Notes: a model not told the origin generated them from the letters alone. A stretch of DNA of 64,000 nucleotides from Verrucomicrobia bacterium UBA2281 (GCA_002347655.1 DDWR01000024.1:140971-204970); one strand, 5' to 3'; numbered from the stretch's first letter, positions 2,051 through 43,790 are shown. Made by a program: numbers and translations.

Positions 2051-3196
2051 TTAAGAGCTCTCTTTGCTTGCGATCTCATGCGCCAATGGATTTAGATAGT
2101 TATCGGCAATCCAATTGATTACAGGGACACATACTGCATCGCCAAATCCATACAACGCCTTGTCCAGCGCCACCTCTTTTAGACTGAACTCATCGGCCCC
2201 CATGAGTCGGGCGCATTCGCGCGCCGTCAACAAGCGCACTTTGACTTGATTGAAGCCAGCCTGAATTAGAATTTGCTTTGCGCTCCCGCCCTTAGGTGTC
2301 CTTAAACACCCCGCGATCCCATCCGTGCGAAGTTCGGCTTGAGACTTTCCATTTCGCACGCGGCGGAAAGCAGTACCATAGGACCACTTTCTCTGTCCCA
2401 TCATGGCCTTAAGTGCGGCTGCGTGCTTAACGCTCATTTGACTTAATAGATAATTAGTGCGCTTCTCGTTCCACCATATGGATGAATCATGTGGAACCGG
2501 CTCAATAATATCCTTCAACGTCTTCTCGGATTTTATCGGCGGCTCAGGAGTGGTTCTTATATGCCAAGAGATTTCCGGGTGTGAATATATGAATTCTGCC
2601 AACGCCCTAGGCCGAAGAGGTCCCTCATAGAAAACGGGGGTTTCGCGCACGATTTCGCAATATGGCTTACTCGGCAACGAACCAATTACAAAGAGCCGCA
2701 CCCTGCTTTGCGGCACAAAACGCGCAGCATCAATGATAAGAGCATCAACTTCATAGCCCAGCTCGTTCAATGCGAGCAACGCAGATTGAAAGTCTTTTCC
2801 GCCCTTCGAGGTCATGAATCCAACAACATTTTCAAGCATTACCAGCTTAGGTCTTCTTGGGCCAAGAGCTTCAAGGACGCGAATGAACCCCCAATAAGCA
2901 GATGATTGCTTTCCGCTTAAACCCATTCGCATTCCCGCCAACGATAAATCCGTGCAAGGAAATGATGCCGTTGCCAGTGTGGCCGCGGGAATTTTACTCG
3001 CATCAATTTTGTGGATGTCGTCGCATACAAAATGGGAAACAGCATCGGCAAAATGCCCGTCGTATAGAGCCTTCTTCTCTTCAGATATGTCGTTGGCGAA
3101 TACAACTTTCCACCCCGATTTTTCTAGTCCAAGGCGGACAAGTCCAATCCCAGCAAAATACTCTGCAACAGTTTTTTGTGTTTGCTCAGAAGCCAT
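2051..3196 (-). CDS. DNA (cytosine-5)-methyltransferase (Dcm-family type II MTase)
   Basis: Motif I FAGIGL, motif IV ASFPCTDLSLAG (catalytic PC), motif VI ENVVGF, and a C-terminal TRD. Low GC. Its start codon is 1 nt after the C-protein stop. Confidence 0.9.
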   Translation of the reverse strand: MASEQTQKTVAEYFAGIGLVRLGLEKSGWKVVFANDISEEKKALYDGHFADAVSHFVCDDIHKIDASKIPAATLATASFPCTDLSLAGMRMGLSGKQSSAYWGFIRVLEALGPRRPKLVMLENVVGFMTSKGGKDFQSALLALNELGYEVDALIIDAARFVPQSRVRLFVIGSLPSKPYCEIVRETPVFYEGPLRPRALAEFIYSHPEISWHIRTTPEPPIKSEKTLKDIIEPVPHDSSIWWNEKRTNYLLSQMSVKHAAALKAMMGQRKWSYGTAFRRVRNGKSQAELRTDGIAGCLRTPKGGSAKQILIQAGFNQVKVRLLTARECARLMGADEFSLKEVALDKALYGFGDAVCVPVINWIADNYLNPLAHEIASKESS

Positions 3197-3197
3197 G

Positions 3198-3422
3198 TTA
3201 TCGGCTTTTCCTTTCGATCTTTGCTACGAGATCGGAAGCTTTCAGTCCAAGGGCGAGCGCAATCTTGAAAATGGCTTTCAAGGTCGGGCTTTTCTTCCCC
3301 CGTTCAAGCTGGCTGATGTAGGTGCGGTGGTAGCCGCTTTCGAAGCCCAATTTTTCCTGCGTCAGGCCGCTTTTCTCGCGGGCTTTTTGCAGTTCTTCCC
3401 CGAACGCTTTTTCCAAAGTCAT
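3198..3422 (-). CDS. Controller (C) protein, XRE-family HTH regulator of the R-M system
   Basis: 74 aa with HTH segment LTQEKLGFESGYHRTYISQLERGKKSPTLKAIFKIALALG. Sits immediately upstream of, and translationally coupled to, the MTase (TAA-c-ATG). RBS AGGAAT upstream. Confidence 0.8.
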   Translation of the reverse strand: MTLEKAFGEELQKAREKSGLTQEKLGFESGYHRTYISQLERGKKSPTLKAIFKIALALGLKASDLVAKIERKSR

Positions 3423-4332: not shown

Positions 4333-6651
4333 CTAGTAGGTGTAGCCGATGGTGAAGCTGAAGCGGCCGCTGTCGCCGAGGTAGTCGTCGGTGTTGATGG
4401 GCCAGGCGTAGTCGAGCTGGATGGGGAAACCGGGGAAGTCGAAGCGGACGCCAATGCCGTAGCCGTCGCAGTATTCGCCGTCGCCCGTCGCGGGATTCTC
4501 GAGGTCCTCCTCGAACACGTCCTGCCAGACGATGCCGCCGTCGTAGAAGACCGCGAGGCGGATCTTCTCGAACACGGGGATGGTGTATTCGGCGGTGAGG
4601 GTCGCGGCGGAGCGGCCGCCGAGGGCTTCGCGGTCTTCGTCCTTCGGGCCGACCTTGCGATATTTGAAGGCGCGCACGGTGCGGGGGCCGCCCATGAACA
4701 GGCGGTCGAAGATCGGCACGCGGTCGGAATCGCCGTATTCCTCGATCATCGATCCCCAGCCGCGCAGGCTCAGGACGTGGTCGAACCACAGCGGGAAATA
4801 CTGGGCGGCGCGGAGCTGGAACTGGTAGGTATCGGTATCGCCGGCGAACGGCCCGCCGGCGAGCGTGGCGGCGACGGACCCGCGGAACCCGCGGGTGGCG
4901 ACGAACGTGCTGTCGCGGGTGTCGCGGATGAGTTCGACGGTGCCGTAGCTCTTCAGGCGGCCGCCGCCTTCCATCTGGATCAGTTCGCTGGCGTTGGTCG
5001 AGACGTCGTTGATGTCGATGTTTTCCAGGCCGTAGATCCAGTTGATGCGGTTGAAGCTGCGCAGGGGCTTGCCGAGGGTCAGGGCGCCGCCGGTGGTCAG
5101 CTGGTCGTACTCGTCGCTGTAGTAGCGGGCGTCGCGGCGGAACAGGTCCAGCCCGAGGGAGAGCCGCCGGTTCAGGAACCACGGCTCGACCAAAGACAGT
5201 TCCAGGTCGGTGCGCGAGCTGCCGATCTGGGCGCGCAGGCGCAGTTTCTGGCCGCCGCCGACCGGCCGCGGCCAGCCGAACAGGTCGAAGTTGCCCTGCG
5301 AGAGCTCCACGTAGCCGATGACGTTGTCGATGCTCGACACGCCGACGCCGACCATGAACTGGCCGGTGCGCTGTTCTTCGAGGTCGAAGACGAGGTTGAA
5401 GCGGTTGGAGACGGCGGTGTCTTCCGGATAGGCGTTGACGTAGGAGAAATAGCCCAGGTTCTGCAGGCGCCGCTGGCTGGAGCGGACCTTGACTTCGTTG
5501 TAGATCTCGCCGGGCGCGACGCCGATTTCGCGCCGGACGACCTTGTCCTGGGTCTGGGCGTTGCCGCGGATGTCGACGTTCTGGATGTAGGCCAAGGCGC
5601 CTTCGCGGATATGGTAGGCCACGGCGGCGGTGGCCGCGTTCGTGTCCAGGACGACGCGCGGGGCGACGTCGGTCTTGATGTAGCCGCGCGAGCCGTAGAA
5701 ATCGCGGAGGTTCTGCGCGCCGCGGTCGAGGCCGGCGAGCGCGGCGACGGCGCCGACCGGCACGGCGACGGCGCGGGCCATTTCGTTCGTGGGGAACAGG
5801 GTCGCGCCGTCGATCCGCCAGGCGCCCAGCTTGTAGAGCGGACCTTCGGCGACCGCGAAGGTCACGTCGATCTTCTTGCGGCCGACGTAGGCGATCGTTG
5901 GCTCGCCGACGACGGCGCCGAGATAGCCTCTGTCCATGAACACCTTGCGGATGGCCTCGCGGTCGGCCGCCAGACGGCCGGGCTCGTACATGCCGTCGCT
6001 GGTGAAGATGGACAGCCAATTGGACTGCCGCTGCATCATGACCTTGCGCAAATCGCGCGCGGAGACGTGGCGGTTGCCCCGGAAGCGGATCTTGCGGACG
6101 ATGGCGGGCTTGCCTTCGTCCACGGCCAGATCGACGTCGGCGAACTCGGGCTGGTCCTCGACGGGCCGGATGGTCCAGGTCACCTGGGCGTCGGGATAGT
6201 ATTCCTTGCGGTAGTGCTCGCGGACTTTCTGGGCCTTGAGGCCGAGGAGGGCGTCGTCGACGCGGTCGCCCGAGCCGATTTCCATCAGGGTGCGCACCTT
6301 CTTGTTGCCGACATGGTCCGCGCCCGCCACGGCGAGGCGGCGGATCCTGGGTTTGCCGGCCACGTGGAAGACGAGGATGGCCCCGCCGTCCGCCGCCGGC
6401 TCCAGACGGGCCTCGGCATAGGCGTACATGCCCGATTTCTGCAGCGCGCGGATGTCTTCGGAGAGCGCCGGGCGGTCGAGTTCGCGGCCGACGCGGGCGC
6501 TGACCTGCGCGAGCACCTGCTCCGCGTTGATCGGCACGGGGCCGATCGGCACGACGCGGACGTCCCGGATCGGGGCGGCGGCGGCCGCCGCCGCCCACGC
6601 GCCGAACACGGCCGCTGCGCAAACCCGGCGAAACAGGCGAAACCGGCTCAT
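4333..6651 (-). CDS. bamA: Outer membrane protein assembly factor BamA
   Basis: Signal peptide [31 protein letters not shown]-like N-terminal region and a C-terminal Omp85 barrel ending ...FSFTIGYTY. The six-frame track fuses it with upstream junk; the true ATG at 6651 overlaps the dnaB stop (ATGA). Confidence 0.9.
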   Translation of the reverse strand: MSRFRLFRRVCAAAVFGAWAAAAAAAPIRDVRVVPIGPVPINAEQVLAQVSARVGRELDRPALSEDIRALQKSGMYAYAEARLEPAADGGAILVFHVAGKPRIRRLAVAGADHVGNKKVRTLMEIGSGDRVDDALLGLKAQKVREHYRKEYYPDAQVTWTIRPVEDQPEFADVDLAVDEGKPAIVRKIRFRGNRHVSARDLRKVMMQRQSNWLSIFTSDGMYEPGRLAADREAIRKVFMDRGYLGAVVGEPTIAYVGRKKIDVTFAVAEGPLYKLGAWRIDGATLFPTNEMARAVAVPVGAVAALAGLDRGAQNLRDFYGSRGYIKTDVAPRVVLDTNAATAAVAYHIREGALAYIQNVDIRGNAQTQDKVVRREIGVAPGEIYNEVKVRSSQRRLQNLGYFSYVNAYPEDTAVSNRFNLVFDLEEQRTGQFMVGVGVSSIDNVIGYVELSQGNFDLFGWPRPVGGGQKLRLRAQIGSSRTDLELSLVEPWFLNRRLSLGLDLFRRDARYYSDEYDQLTTGGALTLGKPLRSFNRINWIYGLENIDINDVSTNASELIQMEGGGRLKSYGTVELIRDTRDSTFVATRGFRGSVAATLAGGPFAGDTDTYQFQLRAAQYFPLWFDHVLSLRGWGSMIEEYGDSDRVPIFDRLFMGGPRTVRAFKYRKVGPKDEDREALGGRSAATLTAEYTIPVFEKIRLAVFYDGGIVWQDVFEEDLENPATGDGEYCDGYGIGVRFDFPGFPIQLDYAWPINTDDYLGDSGRFSFTIGYTY

Positions 6652-12245: not shown

Positions 12246-14126
12246 ATGATGAATTTTGCGAAGCGGCTGTTTCCGGCCGCGGCGCTGGCGGGACTGCTCC
12301 TGCAGACCGCCGCCGCCGTCGAACGGGAAACCCACGGCGCCCTCAAGCTCTTCCCCCTCGTCTACCAGCGCGCCACCGAAGATTCCTACGACCTCGAAGC
12401 CCTTTTCGGCCTTGTCGGCGTCCATTCCCGGGGCGAGGAATATTCCCGCCGCGTCGGGCCGCTGTTCTGGGGCGACGACCATCTGCACCTCGCGCCCGTC
12501 TACTGGAATTGGGGCGACAACTGGCTCGTGCCCCCGCTGGCCTGGAACGTCCACGGCCACAAAGGCGTGGGCCCCGTCTGGTGGGGCGACGATTATTTCC
12601 ACGCCGCGCCGCTCTTCTGGAGCTGGAACGACAACTGGCTCCTGCCGCCCGTCGCCGGGCGCCTCCGCGGCACCACCGCCCTCGGCCCCGTCTGGTGGAA
12701 CGACCGCGGCGAATCCGGCCTGTTCCCGCTCTGGTGGAAGAATCCCGACGGCTGGACGCTCCTGCCGCTGGGCTATTCCCACCAAGGCGAAGGCATGTTC
12801 GGCCCCGTCGCGTGGGACGCGCAGCATCTCGACGTCTATCCGTTCTTCTTCAGCGGCGGCGGCGACTGGCTTCTGCTGCCCTTCGGCGGCAAGCTCGACG
12901 ACGACTATATCGCCGGCCCGCTCTGGTGGGGCACCGCCGAATCCGGCCAGCGCTACCTGCATCTGGCGCCGTTCTTCTGGAGCCGCGGCGACAGCTGGCT
13001 CGTGCCGCCGCTGGCGTGGCACGTCGGCGACCACGCGGGCGTCGGCCCCGTCTGGTGGGGGAAAGACTACGTCCACGTCGCCCCGCTCTACTGGAGCTGG
13101 CGGAACAACTGGCTGCTGTTCCCCCTCGCGTGGAACGTCGACGGCCACAAGGGCCTCGGACCGCTGTGGTGGAGCCGCGACTACTTCTGCCTGGCGCCGA
13201 TCTTCTGGAGCAGGCAGGACGACTGGCTGCTGTTCCCGCTGGCCTGGAATATCGGCGGCAACGGCGGCGTCGGCCCGATCTGGTGGGGCCACCGCTATTT
13301 CCATATTGCGCCGCTGCTGTGGACCTGGGAGGGCAACGCGGTGCTGTTTCCGCTGGCGTGGAGCATCGACGGCAACCGCGGCGTCGGGCCCGTCTGGTGG
13401 GGCCGGGACTACTTCCACGTCTTCCCGCTGTTCTGGAGTTCGGGCGGCGACTGGACGCTCCTGCCGCTGGCGTGGAACGGCGCGAACCACAACGGCTTCG
13501 GCCCGCTCTGGTGGGGCGAGGATTATTTCCACGTCGCCCCGCTCTACTGGAGCTGGGACGGCAACCAGCTGCTGCTGCCCCTGGCCTGGAACCTGAAGGG
13601 CAACAAAGGCGTCGGCCCCGTCTGGTGGGGCAAGAACCATTTCCACGTCGCCCCGCTCTTCTGGAGCTGGAACGAGGACTGGCTGCTGTTCCCGCTGGCC
13701 TGGAACCTCGACGGCCAAAAAGGCGTCGGCCCCGTGTTCTGGGGCAAGGATAAAAACGGCGAATCCTATCTCAACGTCTTTCCCCTGTGGATCCGCAAGG
13801 ACCGCACCACCTGGATTCCGCCGCTGCTGGGCTGGATGAACCGGCCCGAAGAAGGCGGCGTCGATTTCAAGCTGGGCCTGCGCCTGCTGCGGTGGGCTTC
13901 CGACGACAAGGGCTACACTTTCGAGCTCCAGCCGCTGCTCGACGTCTCGGGCGGCGACGTCCGCCACTTCTCGCTCGTCTGGCGCCTGTTCGAGTACCAC
14001 CGCGACGCGGACGAACGCTACTGGCGCGCGCTCTTCATCCCCCGCAAGTTCAAGCTGAAGCCCAAGCAAGCCGCCGCCCGCCCGCCCGCGGGCACCGTCG
14101 CCGACGCCTATCTCCCGCGGAATTGA
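12246..14126 (+). CDS. Secreted Trp-rich tandem-repeat protein (about 12 repeats of a 38-aa unit); function unknown
   Basis: Signal peptide MMNFAKRLFPAAALAGLLLQTAAA, followed by repeats of H-x-APL-F/Y-WSW-xx-NWLLFPLAWN-x-DG-x-KGVGPVWWG-x-DYF with a 12-13-aa PLxW periodicity. Start ATG at 12246 verified in frame. Confidence 0.75.
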   Translation: MMNFAKRLFPAAALAGLLLQTAAAVERETHGALKLFPLVYQRATEDSYDLEALFGLVGVHSRGEEYSRRVGPLFWGDDHLHLAPVYWNWGDNWLVPPLAWNVHGHKGVGPVWWGDDYFHAAPLFWSWNDNWLLPPVAGRLRGTTALGPVWWNDRGESGLFPLWWKNPDGWTLLPLGYSHQGEGMFGPVAWDAQHLDVYPFFFSGGGDWLLLPFGGKLDDDYIAGPLWWGTAESGQRYLHLAPFFWSRGDSWLVPPLAWHVGDHAGVGPVWWGKDYVHVAPLYWSWRNNWLLFPLAWNVDGHKGLGPLWWSRDYFCLAPIFWSRQDDWLLFPLAWNIGGNGGVGPIWWGHRYFHIAPLLWTWEGNAVLFPLAWSIDGNRGVGPVWWGRDYFHVFPLFWSSGGDWTLLPLAWNGANHNGFGPLWWGEDYFHVAPLYWSWDGNQLLLPLAWNLKGNKGVGPVWWGKNHFHVAPLFWSWNEDWLLFPLAWNLDGQKGVGPVFWGKDKNGESYLNVFPLWIRKDRTTWIPPLLGWMNRPEEGGVDFKLGLRLLRWASDDKGYTFELQPLLDVSGGDVRHFSLVWRLFEYHRDADERYWRALFIPRKFKLKPKQAAARPPAGTVADAYLPRN

Positions 14127-29331: not shown

Positions 29332-29826
29332 ATGATCAGCAAGAAAATGGCCCAGGAAATCAACGCCCAGATCAACCGCGAATTCTTCTCGGCCTTCCTA
29401 TACCTCGCCATGGCTAACGACGCCGCCGACAAGGGTTTCCTCGGCACCTACAAATGGATGAGCATCCAGTTCAAGGAAGAGCAGGAGCACGCCCTCAAGT
29501 TCGCCAAGTACCTCCAGGACCAGGGCGAAAAGGTCGTCCTGAGCGCCATGGACGCCCCCCAGACCGAGTGGAAAGGCATCCTCGACATGTTCCAGGACGC
29601 CCTCCTGCACGAAAAGAAGGTCACGGCTTGGATCAACGACCTGAACACCCTCGCCCTCGCCGAAAAGGACTACGCCACCCAGAGCATGCTGCGCTGGTTC
29701 ATCGACGAACAGGTCGAGGAAGAAGCCAACTGCAACGAAGCCATCCAAGCCCTTTCGATGGTCGGCGCTTCCGCCAACGGCCTCTACATGATGGACCGCC
29801 AGCTCGGCAAGCGCGTCGCCGACTAG
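29332..29826 (+). CDS. ftn: Non-haem ferritin
   Basis: Ferritin-like di-iron residues (REFFSAFLYLAMA...EEQEHALKFAKYL...). RBS AAAGGA upstream. Confidence 0.9.
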   Translation: MISKKMAQEINAQINREFFSAFLYLAMANDAADKGFLGTYKWMSIQFKEEQEHALKFAKYLQDQGEKVVLSAMDAPQTEWKGILDMFQDALLHEKKVTAWINDLNTLALAEKDYATQSMLRWFIDEQVEEEANCNEAIQALSMVGASANGLYMMDRQLGKRVAD

Positions 29827-29846: not shown

Positions 29847-29877
29847 GGCGGGCGGCCAAGGCCGCCCGCCTTTTTTT
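29847..29877 (+). terminator. Rho-independent terminator of ftn (CCGGCGGGCGGCC-aa-GGCCGCCCGCC then TTTTTTT)
   Basis: Perfect 11-bp GC stem followed by seven T. Confidence 0.8.
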
Positions 29878-29893
29878 GCCCCGCCGGGCGGGG

Positions 29894-30040
29894 TTTTACG
29901 TAGAACATAAAAAGTAGTTTTACGTGGAACGTAAAAACTTTCGCGCGGTTTTACGTGGAACGTAAAAACTTTCGCGCGGTTTTACGTGGAACGTAAAAAC
30001 TTTCGCGCGGTTTTACGTGGAACGTAAAAACTTTGCGGAC
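29894..30040. repeat. Tandem array of 31-bp units (TTTTACGTGGAACGTAAAAACTTTCGCGCGG), four full copies plus a degenerate leading copy. Each unit carries the 19-bp palindrome TTTTACGT-gga-ACGTAAAA.
   Basis: Read directly from the sequence. Units begin at 29918, 29949, 29980 and 30011; a degenerate copy sits at 29894. The array lies between the convergent ftn and potD terminators. Confidence 0.9.
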
Positions 30041-30052
30041 GGAATAAACGAC

Positions 30053-30079
30053 GCGGCCCGCCGGAGGCCGGCGGGCCGC
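30053..30079 (-). terminator. Terminator hairpin of potD (GCGGCCCGCCGG-agg-CCGGCGGGCCGC)
   Basis: Perfect 12-bp stem downstream of the potD stop. A T-rich run follows on the minus strand. Confidence 0.6.
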
Positions 30080-30100
30080 GCGGACCGTTTCCCGAAGCCG

Positions 30101-31138
30101 CTATTCGCCGGCTTTGATCTCGTCCCAGAGCTTGGTGTACTTGACGTTGTTCTCGCCGAGGTCGGCCAAGGTCTCGAGCTTGGCGACGACGTCCGCCGGC
30201 GGGAACAGGATGGGATCCTCCCGGATTTCCTCGGAGAGCAGCTCGTAGCTGGGCCGGTTCGGGCAGAGGAAGTAGATGAACTCGGTCAGCTCGGCGGCGG
30301 CCTGCGGCTCGAGGATGAAGTTGATCATCTTGTGGGCCAGCTCGGGCTGCGGCGCGCCGACGGGGATCACCATGTCGTCGAAGTTGATCTGCGAGCCTTC
30401 CTCGGGCACCGCGATCTGGATATCCTCGTTCTCGGCCTGCACGAGCATCAGGTCGCCGCTGTAGCCGTGGACGAGCAGGAATTCGCCGGAGGCGAGGCCG
30501 TTCTTGTATTGCTCGTTCTCGAACTTGGCGAGGTTCTTCTTCCAGCGCAGGACGACCTCCTTGGCCGCGGCCAGCTCGGCGTCGTCGATCGTGTTCAGGC
30601 TGTAGCCGAGGTGCTTGAGGGCGACGCCGATGACTTCGCGGTGGTCGTTGAGCATCGTCATGCGGCCCTTGAGGTCGGCGCGGTCGAGCATGGCCCAGGT
30701 GGGCTGGAAATCCTTCACCTTGCTGCCGAGATAGCCCAGGCAGGTGATCGTGACCGTGTAGGGCACGCTGTGGTCCATGGCCTGGTCGAACGCCAGCTTC
30801 ATGTAGTCCGGATCGATGTTCTTGCGGTTGGGGATCAGGTCCAGGTTCAGCTTCTGCAGCATGCCCTGGTCGTTCATGATCTTGACCATGTAGCTGCTCG
30901 GGAACAGCAGGTCGTAGCCCGTCGCGCCGGCCTTGAGCTTGGCGTACATTTCCTCGTTGGAGGCATAGGTGTCGACCACGACCCGGCAGTGGTTCTCGCG
31001 CTCGAACTGCTTCACGAGTTCGGGCTTGATGTAGTCCGACCAGGTGTAGACGTGCAGCGTCGGTTTCTTCTCCGCGCAGCCGGCCAGGGCCGCGACGGCC
31101 GCGGCCAGCGCCAGCGCCGTCCAGATGTTCTTCGTCAT
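30101..31138 (-). CDS. potD: Spermidine/putrescine ABC transporter substrate-binding lipoprotein PotD
   Basis: Lipoprotein signal MTKNIWTALALAAAVAALAGC. PotD-like periplasmic binding fold. Strong RBS AAGGAGGAAC before the ATG at 31138. Confidence 0.9.
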   Translation of the reverse strand: MTKNIWTALALAAAVAALAGCAEKKPTLHVYTWSDYIKPELVKQFERENHCRVVVDTYASNEEMYAKLKAGATGYDLLFPSSYMVKIMNDQGMLQKLNLDLIPNRKNIDPDYMKLAFDQAMDHSVPYTVTITCLGYLGSKVKDFQPTWAMLDRADLKGRMTMLNDHREVIGVALKHLGYSLNTIDDAELAAAKEVVLRWKKNLAKFENEQYKNGLASGEFLLVHGYSGDLMLVQAENEDIQIAVPEEGSQINFDDMVIPVGAPQPELAHKMINFILEPQAAAELTEFIYFLCPNRPSYELLSEEIREDPILFPPADVVAKLETLADLGENNVKYTKLWDEIKAGE

Positions 31139-31174
31139 GGTCCGTTCCTCCTTGGATGGTTTGTTCAAATCGGT

Positions 31175-43740: not shown

Positions 43741-43790
43741 TTTTGCGTGCCACGTGATTTTCCGGCAAAGTTTTTACGTTCTACGTAAAA
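43741..43790. repeat. Second locus of the TTTTACGT-N3-ACGTAAAA palindrome family (TTTTTACGTTCTACGTAAAA plus a degenerate copy TTTTGCGTGCCACGTGATTTT)
   Basis: Same 8-bp arms as the 29.9-kb array. Again sits between a terminator and a convergent gene end. Confidence 0.8.

Follow-up and report, generated by a model that had tools for sequence, protein, structure and literature searches.

A 31-bp tandem palindrome array downstream of a ferritin gene is one locus of a clade-specific, interspersed extragenic repeat family in uncultured Kiritimatiellia-type bacteria

The window analysed in this study is a stretch of 64,000 nucleotides from Verrucomicrobia bacterium UBA2281 (GCA_002347655.1, DDWR01000024.1:140971-204970), and its host belongs to an uncultured PVC lineage from bioreactor-type metagenomes. 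Near the middle of the window, a ferritin gene and a convergent gene for a PotD-type solute-binding protein are separated by a tandem array of a short palindromic unit. The features of this locus are as follows.

29332..29826, + strand: ferritin gene (PF00210), upstream of the array
29847..29877, + strand: intrinsic terminator of the ferritin gene, a 10-bp all-GC stem (29847-29870) followed by T7 (terminator scan)
29874..29893, + strand: second GC hairpin, CCCCGCCGGGCGGGG, which abuts the first unit and has the TTTT of that unit as its T tail
29894..29912, + strand: degenerate leading unit, TTTTACGTAGAACATAAAA; loop AGA, G>A in the right arm
29918..29948, + strand: unit 1, TTTTACGTGGAACGTAAAA followed by ACTTTCGCGCGG
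29949..29979, + strand: unit 2, a 31-mer identical to unit 1
29980..30010, + strand: unit 3, a 31-mer identical to unit 1
30011..30034, + strand: unit 4, the 24-nt core TTTTACGTGGAACGTAAAAACTTT, followed by the unique flank GCGGACGG
30051..30081, - strand: terminator-like hairpin assigned to the potD-like gene; its stem has 14 pairs and its T-rich tail is weak (terminator scan)
30101..31168, - strand: gene for a periplasmic PotD-type solute-binding protein (SBP_bac_1/8/11), convergent with the ferritin gene

The 31-bp tandem array proved genuine. Tandem Repeats Finder reported it at 29917-30034 with a period of 31, 3.8 copies and 100% matches (consensus GTTTTACGTGGAACGTAAAAACTTTCGCGCG). The 19-bp palindrome TTTTACGTGGAACGTAAAA occurs exactly at 29918, 29949, 29980 and 30011, where dinucleotide shuffles of the window gave an expectation of 0.00 matches. 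The copy at 29894, TTTTACGTAGAACATAAAA, has one mismatch and a different centre, and the next unit begins 24 bp on. Units 1 to 3 are identical 31-mers, and unit 4 shares their first 24 nucleotides before running into the flank. The four copies and the degenerate leading copy described in the initial annotation were thus confirmed, and both terminators that it placed around the array were recovered by the scan. The flank of unit 4 is conserved in the CALKWZ orthologue, and the ferritin terminator is structurally conserved in the CALMNW and JBFXHR orthologues. The sequence leading into the array is the same in four independent assemblies. Three independent short-read assemblies (L002, L003 and L004) end inside the array, and the only source for a copy number of four is thus the 382-kb JGI contig. 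No sigma-70 promoter was found in the array by scanning; by eye, neither an ECF-type GGAAC...CGT spacing nor a parS-like match fits.

The same genome carries two further arrays of the palindrome. The first lies in the window, at 43741-43790, after a terminator and with convergent genes on either side.

43741..43759, - strand: degenerate unit, TTTTGCGTGCCACGTGATT, at a spacing of exactly 31 bp to the perfect unit
43767..43790 (palindrome 43772-43790), - strand: perfect unit with a different centre, AAAGT-TTTTACGTTCTACGTAAAA on the + strand

A 1190-aa ankyrin-repeat gene has its stop codon 16 bp from the perfect unit, and the extended core ACGTAAAAACTTT matches this locus on the opposite strand. 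The other array was found by extending the native contig from a methyltransferase gene. It lies about 300 bp upstream of the window start (L111 13554-13634), with the stop codon of a CIA30-domain gene 13 nt before it; the array at the RZYG locus L091 is its orthologue. Its three units have the loops ACT, GGA and AGA and three different spacers. The native genome thus holds three arrays in about 72 kb. Adjoining the array in L111 is a tandem duplication of about 75 bp (ggtttggttttcgagtgccaggcagaacagccgcacgctgaagcgtggac..., L111 ~13390-13540), which is distinct from the palindrome family and inside which two short-read assemblies break (the ends of L112 and L113).

Two other regions of the window were noted in passing. 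The segment 1095-3420 is a low-GC island (49-57% against about 67%) with a restriction-modification module; synteny with related MAGs stops there, and the island was probably acquired horizontally.

1095-2042, - strand: DUF4928 protein
2051-3196, - strand: C5 DNA methyltransferase (PF00145)
~3240-3392, - strand: small HTH_3 controller-type gene

At 12969-13750 lies a 114-bp repeat of 6.9 copies with 72% identity, also scored with a period of 342, which is probably a repeated protein domain inside a coding region.

The array in the window belongs to a family of extragenic repeats that are interspersed in the genomes of uncultured Kiritimatiellia-type (PVC) bacteria and specific to this clade. 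An exact-match scan of a genome collection with one genome per species returned at least 105 stretches. About 70 of the 105 listed are in seven or eight related MAGs and are mostly arrays; the remaining matches listed are single sites in unrelated genomes. The carrier MAGs bear the label Kiritimatiellia, Verrucomicrobia or 'Spartobacteria' and mostly show two to four sites at 31-bp spacing; where their genes can be aligned with the window, identity is 81-91%. A metagenome scan with the 24-nt core added at least 120 further stretches, and the palindrome is also strongly over-represented in the source metagenomes of the related MAGs. The de-duplicated total is at least 171 distinct arrays with at least 508 units in 1.49 Mb of related DNA, the loci being ascertained by the palindrome itself. 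In the literature we found no description of the motif or of palindromic repeats in Kiritimatiellia, nor any repeat family on record for this PVC lineage, and the family appears to be previously undescribed.

Several matches outside the clade were considered and set aside. A phage origin of the family was rejected: the 16 stretches matched in the viral scan are nearly all single sites in AT-rich contigs, consistent with chance. Four Acidobacteriota sites (L009 1708, L017 3208, L018 2649 and L046 6162) were judged chance matches by a rough estimate of our own, given the very many terminator-like palindromes in the collection. In these sites the 19-mers are the tips of long perfect GC-rich palindromes with flanking A and T runs, an arrangement resembling bidirectional terminators. 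One viral-scan stretch, L124 (IMG/VR 3300042988_001951), has two perfect palindromes 23 bp apart (2639-2680) in an operator-like layout, 25-65 bp upstream of an XRE-family helix-turn-helix gene and beside an integrase gene, with two imperfect copies nearby. This contig is unrelated to the family genomes and is not counted as a member, and it illustrates the palindrome at an operator-like position. The XRE protein had no homologues in the protein collection searched and showed only generic helix-turn-helix similarity to proteins of the family loci. Judged from its position, this gene was the only lead to a cognate binding protein.

The family unit is an oriented 24-nt core, TTTTACGT-RGA-ACGTAAAA-ACTTT, followed by about seven variable GC-rich nucleotides with only a weak consensus. 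The 19-bp palindrome inside the core is an 8-3-8 dyad with TTTT/AAAA ends. Its arms are AT-rich in a genome of roughly 67% GC, four of the eight stem pairs being G-C. The gap between the half-sites was 3 nt in all 370 distinct sites, and 111 of the 138 oriented units carried the loop AGA (57), GGA (37) or AGC (17). The 171 de-duplicated arrays comprise one to six units each. Their centre-to-centre spacings were 31 bp (275 cases), 32 bp (13), 30 bp (3), 22 bp (42) and 21, 23 or 24 bp (4), and no others, so that 291 cases fall at 31±1 bp and 46 at 22±1 or 24 bp. Units 31 bp apart run head-to-tail (FFF or RRR strings), and the minority of pairs 22 bp apart are often head-to-head, forming 41-bp perfect palindromes. 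Between palindromes lie 12 nt, five conserved and seven variable, and 24 of the 31 positions of the unit are conserved. The inner spacers of adjacent units are 43% alike against 41% between different arrays, and their length is fixed. The RGA loop and the 3' ACTTT are asymmetric and co-oriented, which shows that the units descend by copying.

Against this background the array in the window is a locally amplified copy and not the typical state of the family. Among the 209 arrays before de-duplication, identical adjacent 31-mers occur in the window array only. This fact points to recent in-situ amplification or homogenisation, and we infer with good support that the identical units arose in this way, by replication slippage, unequal recombination or gene conversion.

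There is also a second type of half-site, TTTTCCAC/GTGGAAAA, which occurs in pure form or as a hybrid with the TTTTACGT type. Denoting the two types A and B, the 508 units comprise 384 AA, 51 BB, 38 AB and 35 BA combinations. Independent assortment would give about 15 BB units. Palindromy is thus enriched beyond independent assortment of the half-sites, which fits a hairpin as well as a protein site. The TTTTCCAC-NNN-GTGGAAAA variant and its hybrids usually stand at one end of arrays, paired head-to-head at a distance of 22 bp (for example L069 7307-7350, L028 5204-5245, L051 456-496 and L008 102-141). Most of them come from the CAZECJ and CALMNW genomes; the window has none.

The positions of the arrays relative to genes were assessed with crude ORF/GC3 gene calls of our own, counting neighbours within 300 bp. 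Where both neighbours were called (n = 38), 12 arrays lay in convergent, 26 in tandem and none in divergent gaps, against 25, 94 and 22 background gaps, respectively (chi-square p = 0.013, with orthologues among the loci and the counted arrays accordingly not independent). Arrays 3' of a gene show no orientation bias with respect to transcription (18 sense, 21 antisense). Many arrays directly abut stop or start codons, and some directly precede a ribosome-binding site. Because arrays abut stop codons at many loci, the position between two terminators seen in the window is not a property of the family.

Fourteen groups of orthologous arrays were found between species. The site downstream of ferritin is occupied in four genomes, namely the window genome, CALMNW, JBFXHR and CALKWZ, the last seen from the potD side, and the loops, spacers and unit numbers differ among the four. 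Judged from this comparison, the ferritin-downstream site is ancestral. In orthologous pairs the arms are 92.5% identical, against 64% for the loops and 70% each for the spacers and flanks, and we take this conservation to reflect probable selection on the arms. Orthologous arrays also differ by whole units (1 vs 3, 4 vs 3 and 5 vs 3). Of 18 fully flanked pairs, five share only one flank, a proportion that has no baseline rate beside it; arrays thus often lie at synteny breaks and appear to coincide with rearrangement junctions. Pairs with one shared flank include L059/L080, L063/L083/L079 and window/L043, and in L083 of CALKWZ the two flanks match two different loci in other species.

Other sequence elements accompany the arrays at some loci. 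A GC-rich insert of about 125 bp (...GACATAGCCGAGTGCCGAGCCCAAG...GGCGAGCGAGCGAGGCTCCGCGAGCGGAGCGGC) splits the unit, and in three genomes (L102 1166-1300, L109 4628-4760 and L097 6023-6150; partial in L055) the break falls at an identical position, with TTTTACGTAGAACG on one side and AAAAACTTT on the other. It matched no Rfam family, and it looks like a small mobile element targeting the palindrome. A conserved long hairpin (GGGTGGGTGAACGAG...CTCGTTCACCC, then CATGGCGCAAGGCCATGGGGGTC) adjoins an array at L028 ~5085-5165 and in the orthologous L072, L078 and L023. It is present in four species, has no Rfam match at the gathering score, and might represent a further repeat or a structured RNA not yet annotated. 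AT-rich short tandem motifs, namely GAATGAAGAAT/GAATTAAGAAT heptamer runs and AATATTCAATAT/CCAATATCCAAT runs, adjoin arrays in L031, L047, L094, L101, L109 and others; the window has none.

The stem-loop that a single unit can form is weak. Its free energy is -5.1 and -6.6 kcal/mol as RNA and -6.4 kcal/mol as DNA, with z-scores of -0.45 to -1.6 against shuffles, which is statistically unremarkable. On the + strand the unit hairpin is not the minimum-free-energy fold. The whole array folds better than shuffled sequence (z of -3.7 to -4.0). The terminator scan called the two flanking GC hairpins and not the units, which lack a GC-rich stem with a U tract. No Rfam family reached the gathering threshold in the window and 17 loci, the best sub-threshold scores being far below the cut-offs. 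A known RNA family was accordingly rejected, the Rfam matches at E up to 10 being noise only.

The explanation that we favour, with moderate confidence, is that the window holds a local amplification within a clade-specific family whose units are DNA-level binding sites for a dimeric protein, located at gene ends. Clustered sites of this kind had been offered by the initial annotation as an alternative to a REP-type array, and it is the geometry that now makes them the preferred reading. The most likely function would be a helically phased binding-site array for a predicted dimeric protein. Each 8-3-8 palindrome would be a DNA-level site for a dimer, probably of the helix-turn-helix type, and the fixed spacing of two or three helical turns would place successive sites on one face of the helix. 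The array could then nucleate a cooperative nucleoprotein complex. Such complexes, placed at gene 3' ends and in operon gaps, might have an architectural or insulating role similar to that proposed for BIMEs, and the element would act neither as an RNA hairpin or terminator nor as a CRISPR array.

Two properties expected of phased operators are found in the family: a dyad whose half-site separation is invariant (370/370), and spacing by integral helical turns regardless of the spacer sequence. Together with the conservation of the AT-rich core, the modular half-sites and the lack of strand bias, the dyad with its 3-nt gap and the fixed spacing with free spacer sequence favour a protein-binding role at the DNA level. 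Two counterpoints should be mentioned. A symmetric dimer needs no asymmetric, co-oriented loop and flank, and the fixed spacing could in part be an inherited unit length rather than a selected distance.

A broader reading, which we put forward tentatively and consider rather unlikely as a whole, is that the arrays are genome-wide, helically phased docking sites for a predicted clade-specific protein and form a chromosomal 'punctuation' at gene ends. Units would be added singly with a fixed-length but unrelated 7-nt spacer, by neither RAYT transposition nor simple tandem duplication. If this reading is true, the arrays might, for example, insulate convergent transcription units from each other, act as a roadblock between them, or serve as a centre of nucleoid organisation. 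Their interest would rise with a dedicated binding protein or a new mechanism of unit addition. Since the stem is too weak for a convincing RNA role and the geometry is very strict, protein binding and hairpin formation can be directly tested against each other. At a practical level, short-read assemblies break at the arrays, synteny breakpoints coincide with them, and their unit number varies; they thereby affect the contiguity of MAGs and could also serve as strain markers.

The main alternative, which we consider unlikely though well worth weighing, is that the family consists of true REP/REPIN elements, that is, hairpins of single-stranded DNA that a Y1 (RAYT-like) transposase, encoded elsewhere in the genome, would recognise and disperse. 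The arrays would then be BIME-like by-products, and effects on the host, such as protection of mRNA 3' ends or binding of gyrase or IHF, would be secondary. REP units are palindromes of 20-40 bp whose neighbours stand in opposite orientation, as in REPIN doublets and alternating BIMEs. REP elements lie mostly in convergent or unidirectional gaps and rarely in divergent ones, and their palindrome bears a GTAG or CGTC tag at one end (PMC3733652). In its distribution the family agrees with this description: the unit is short, palindromic, high in copy number, extragenic and clade-specific, and none of 38 arrays lies in a divergent gap. The 41-bp perfect palindromes of the head-to-head pairs are REPIN-like, the insertion of about 125 bp at the same position of the unit in three genomes recalls the insertion sequences that target REPs, and the co-orientation of loop and flank implies copying.

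Other characters of REP elements, however, are missing. The palindrome has no GTAG or CGTC tag at its end; GTAG arises only across the stem-loop junction in variants with an AG loop, and the four units of the window read GTGG there. Most units are head-to-tail, with opposite orientation of neighbours confined to the 22-bp minority. The 8-bp AT-rich stem is at best marginally stable, and strict spacing at 31 or 22 bp is not a REP property. The transposase, whose gene would be flanked by the repeats, was sought by tblastn with E. coli RayT (NC_000913), with an HMM built from 120 RayT homologues and by a scan for the HUH...Y-x-x-NP motif. The tblastn search gave nothing below E = 0.2, the best match lying inside a transporter gene. 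Because the protein-database search returned only Enterobacteriaceae homologues, the HMM gained little reach. No RAYT-like gene was found in the window and about 2.3 Mb of array-bearing loci by these searches, whose HMM is enterobacterial and whose sensitivity for distant Y1 enzymes is limited. The resemblance to REP/BIME arrays proposed in the initial annotation therefore stands for the extragenic location and the bias toward convergent and unidirectional gaps, and falls for the tag, the orientation and the stem. Since several of the tests that define REPs failed, the family was not filed as REP and is best described as REP/BIME-like in distribution. A MITE, which would have terminal inverted repeats around a unit and a target-site duplication, does not fit either: the arrays start and end with ordinary units, and neither the array listings nor the orthologue alignments show direct repeats at the flanks.

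An element acting at the RNA level is improbable in our judgement. Here, transcribed tandem hairpins would terminate convergent transcription or protect the upstream mRNA from 3' exonucleases. The arrays do adjoin gene 3' ends, and at several loci (for example L024, L033, L052, L063, L070 and L092) the array fills the whole convergent gap and leaves no room for another terminator. The palindrome reads identically on both strands, and the fold of the whole array is better than that of shuffled sequence. In addition, where an array occupies the gap from a stop codon to the following ribosome-binding site, it is almost certainly transcribed and might act at the RNA level. The single hairpin, on the other hand, is indistinguishable from shuffled sequence and is not the minimum-free-energy fold of the + strand. 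It has neither a GC-rich stem nor a proper U tract, and it corresponds to no Rfam family. The window array is placed past the terminators that the two genes themselves possess. Elsewhere, arrays directly upstream of ribosome-binding sites are in apparent operons, where termination would be harmful. Furthermore, spacing by helical repeats and an invariant 3-nt gap have no obvious rationale in RNA.

We also give little credence to a functionless minisatellite of the MIRU/STAR type, selfish or neutral, in which gene conversion keeps the core uniform and the array in the window is an ordinary VNTR. This explanation would account for head-to-tail units at many intergenic loci, for the variation of unit number between orthologous arrays and for the perfect homogenisation of the window array. 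The synteny breaks at arrays in five of 18 fully flanked pairs would also suggest recombination between copies. Conversion, however, should homogenise the spacers together with the core, whereas the spacers are unrelated even within an array; similarity over the whole length of the unit was seen in the window array as the sole exception. The AT-rich core persists at orthologous sites in species that are 82-95% identical in the flanks, despite GC-biased surroundings, and the lack of drift in spacer length argues for constraint.

The last candidate, a locus-specific accident in the form of a private tandem duplication or an assembly artefact without relatives, would fit the identical spacers seen only here and the short-read assemblies that break here. 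Apart from the copy number, it is refuted as a complete explanation, with next to no probability left, by the four independent assemblies that share the sequence leading into the array and by the recurrence of the core, which is present at a second site of the window, at a third close upstream of its start and in hundreds of arrays of related genomes; the concern that the motif might be restricted to this locus is thereby answered.

The family can finally be compared with known systems. CRISPR arrays have unique spacers of about 26-72 bp and adjacent cas genes. The family shares with them regular short palindromic repeats with non-identical intervening sequence at most loci. It was rejected as CRISPR on the 12-nt spacer length, the limit of six units, the dozens of loci and the lack of cas genes nearby, no Cas families being present in the Pfam-annotated 20 kb around the array. 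The initial annotation had also excluded CRISPR, and its conclusion is upheld; its reason, the identical spacers, applies to the window only, as the spacers elsewhere differ in seven of their 12 nt.

STAR elements of Staphylococcus aureus and MIRUs of Mycobacterium tuberculosis occupy scattered intergenic loci with a variable number of head-to-tail units, and the family is like them in this layout. STAR elements, moreover, have a short conserved core in alternation with variable spacers whose lengths recur, and this core is opposite to the genome in base composition. The STAR core, however, is GC-rich, non-palindromic and spaced at about 40 bp, and MIRUs measure 46-100 bp and are conserved over their whole length. 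To our knowledge, neither shows an 8-3-8 dyad or spacing by multiples of the helical repeat.

Dyads in helical phase are a feature of the phased operator arrays of oligomeric repressors, such as the ARG boxes (centres about 21 bp apart) and the NrdR boxes (about 31-32 bp), and of plasmid centromeres such as sopC; in these, dyad sites of 16-19 bp are set at two or three helical turns with free spacer sequence and fixed spacer length. Such arrays, whose binding proteins are known, are found on plasmids or at one or a few promoters. The family differs in having at least dozens of loci per genome, in avoiding divergent promoter regions and in that its binding protein is only predicted.

Most interspersed extragenic palindromes known so far come from Proteobacteria, and how they act is still under debate. 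Like REP, BIME and REPIN elements (PMC3733652, PMC3116915), the family consists of short palindromes in many copies that are extragenic, clade-specific and arranged in small clusters. Both prefer convergent and unidirectional gaps and hardly occur in divergent ones, both are occasional targets of insertions, and both are often conserved at orthologous sites. The family departs from REP/BIME in its AT-rich, perfect 8-bp stem, where theirs is GC-rich and imperfect, and in units that are mostly head-to-tail with a fixed 31-bp period and unrelated spacers.
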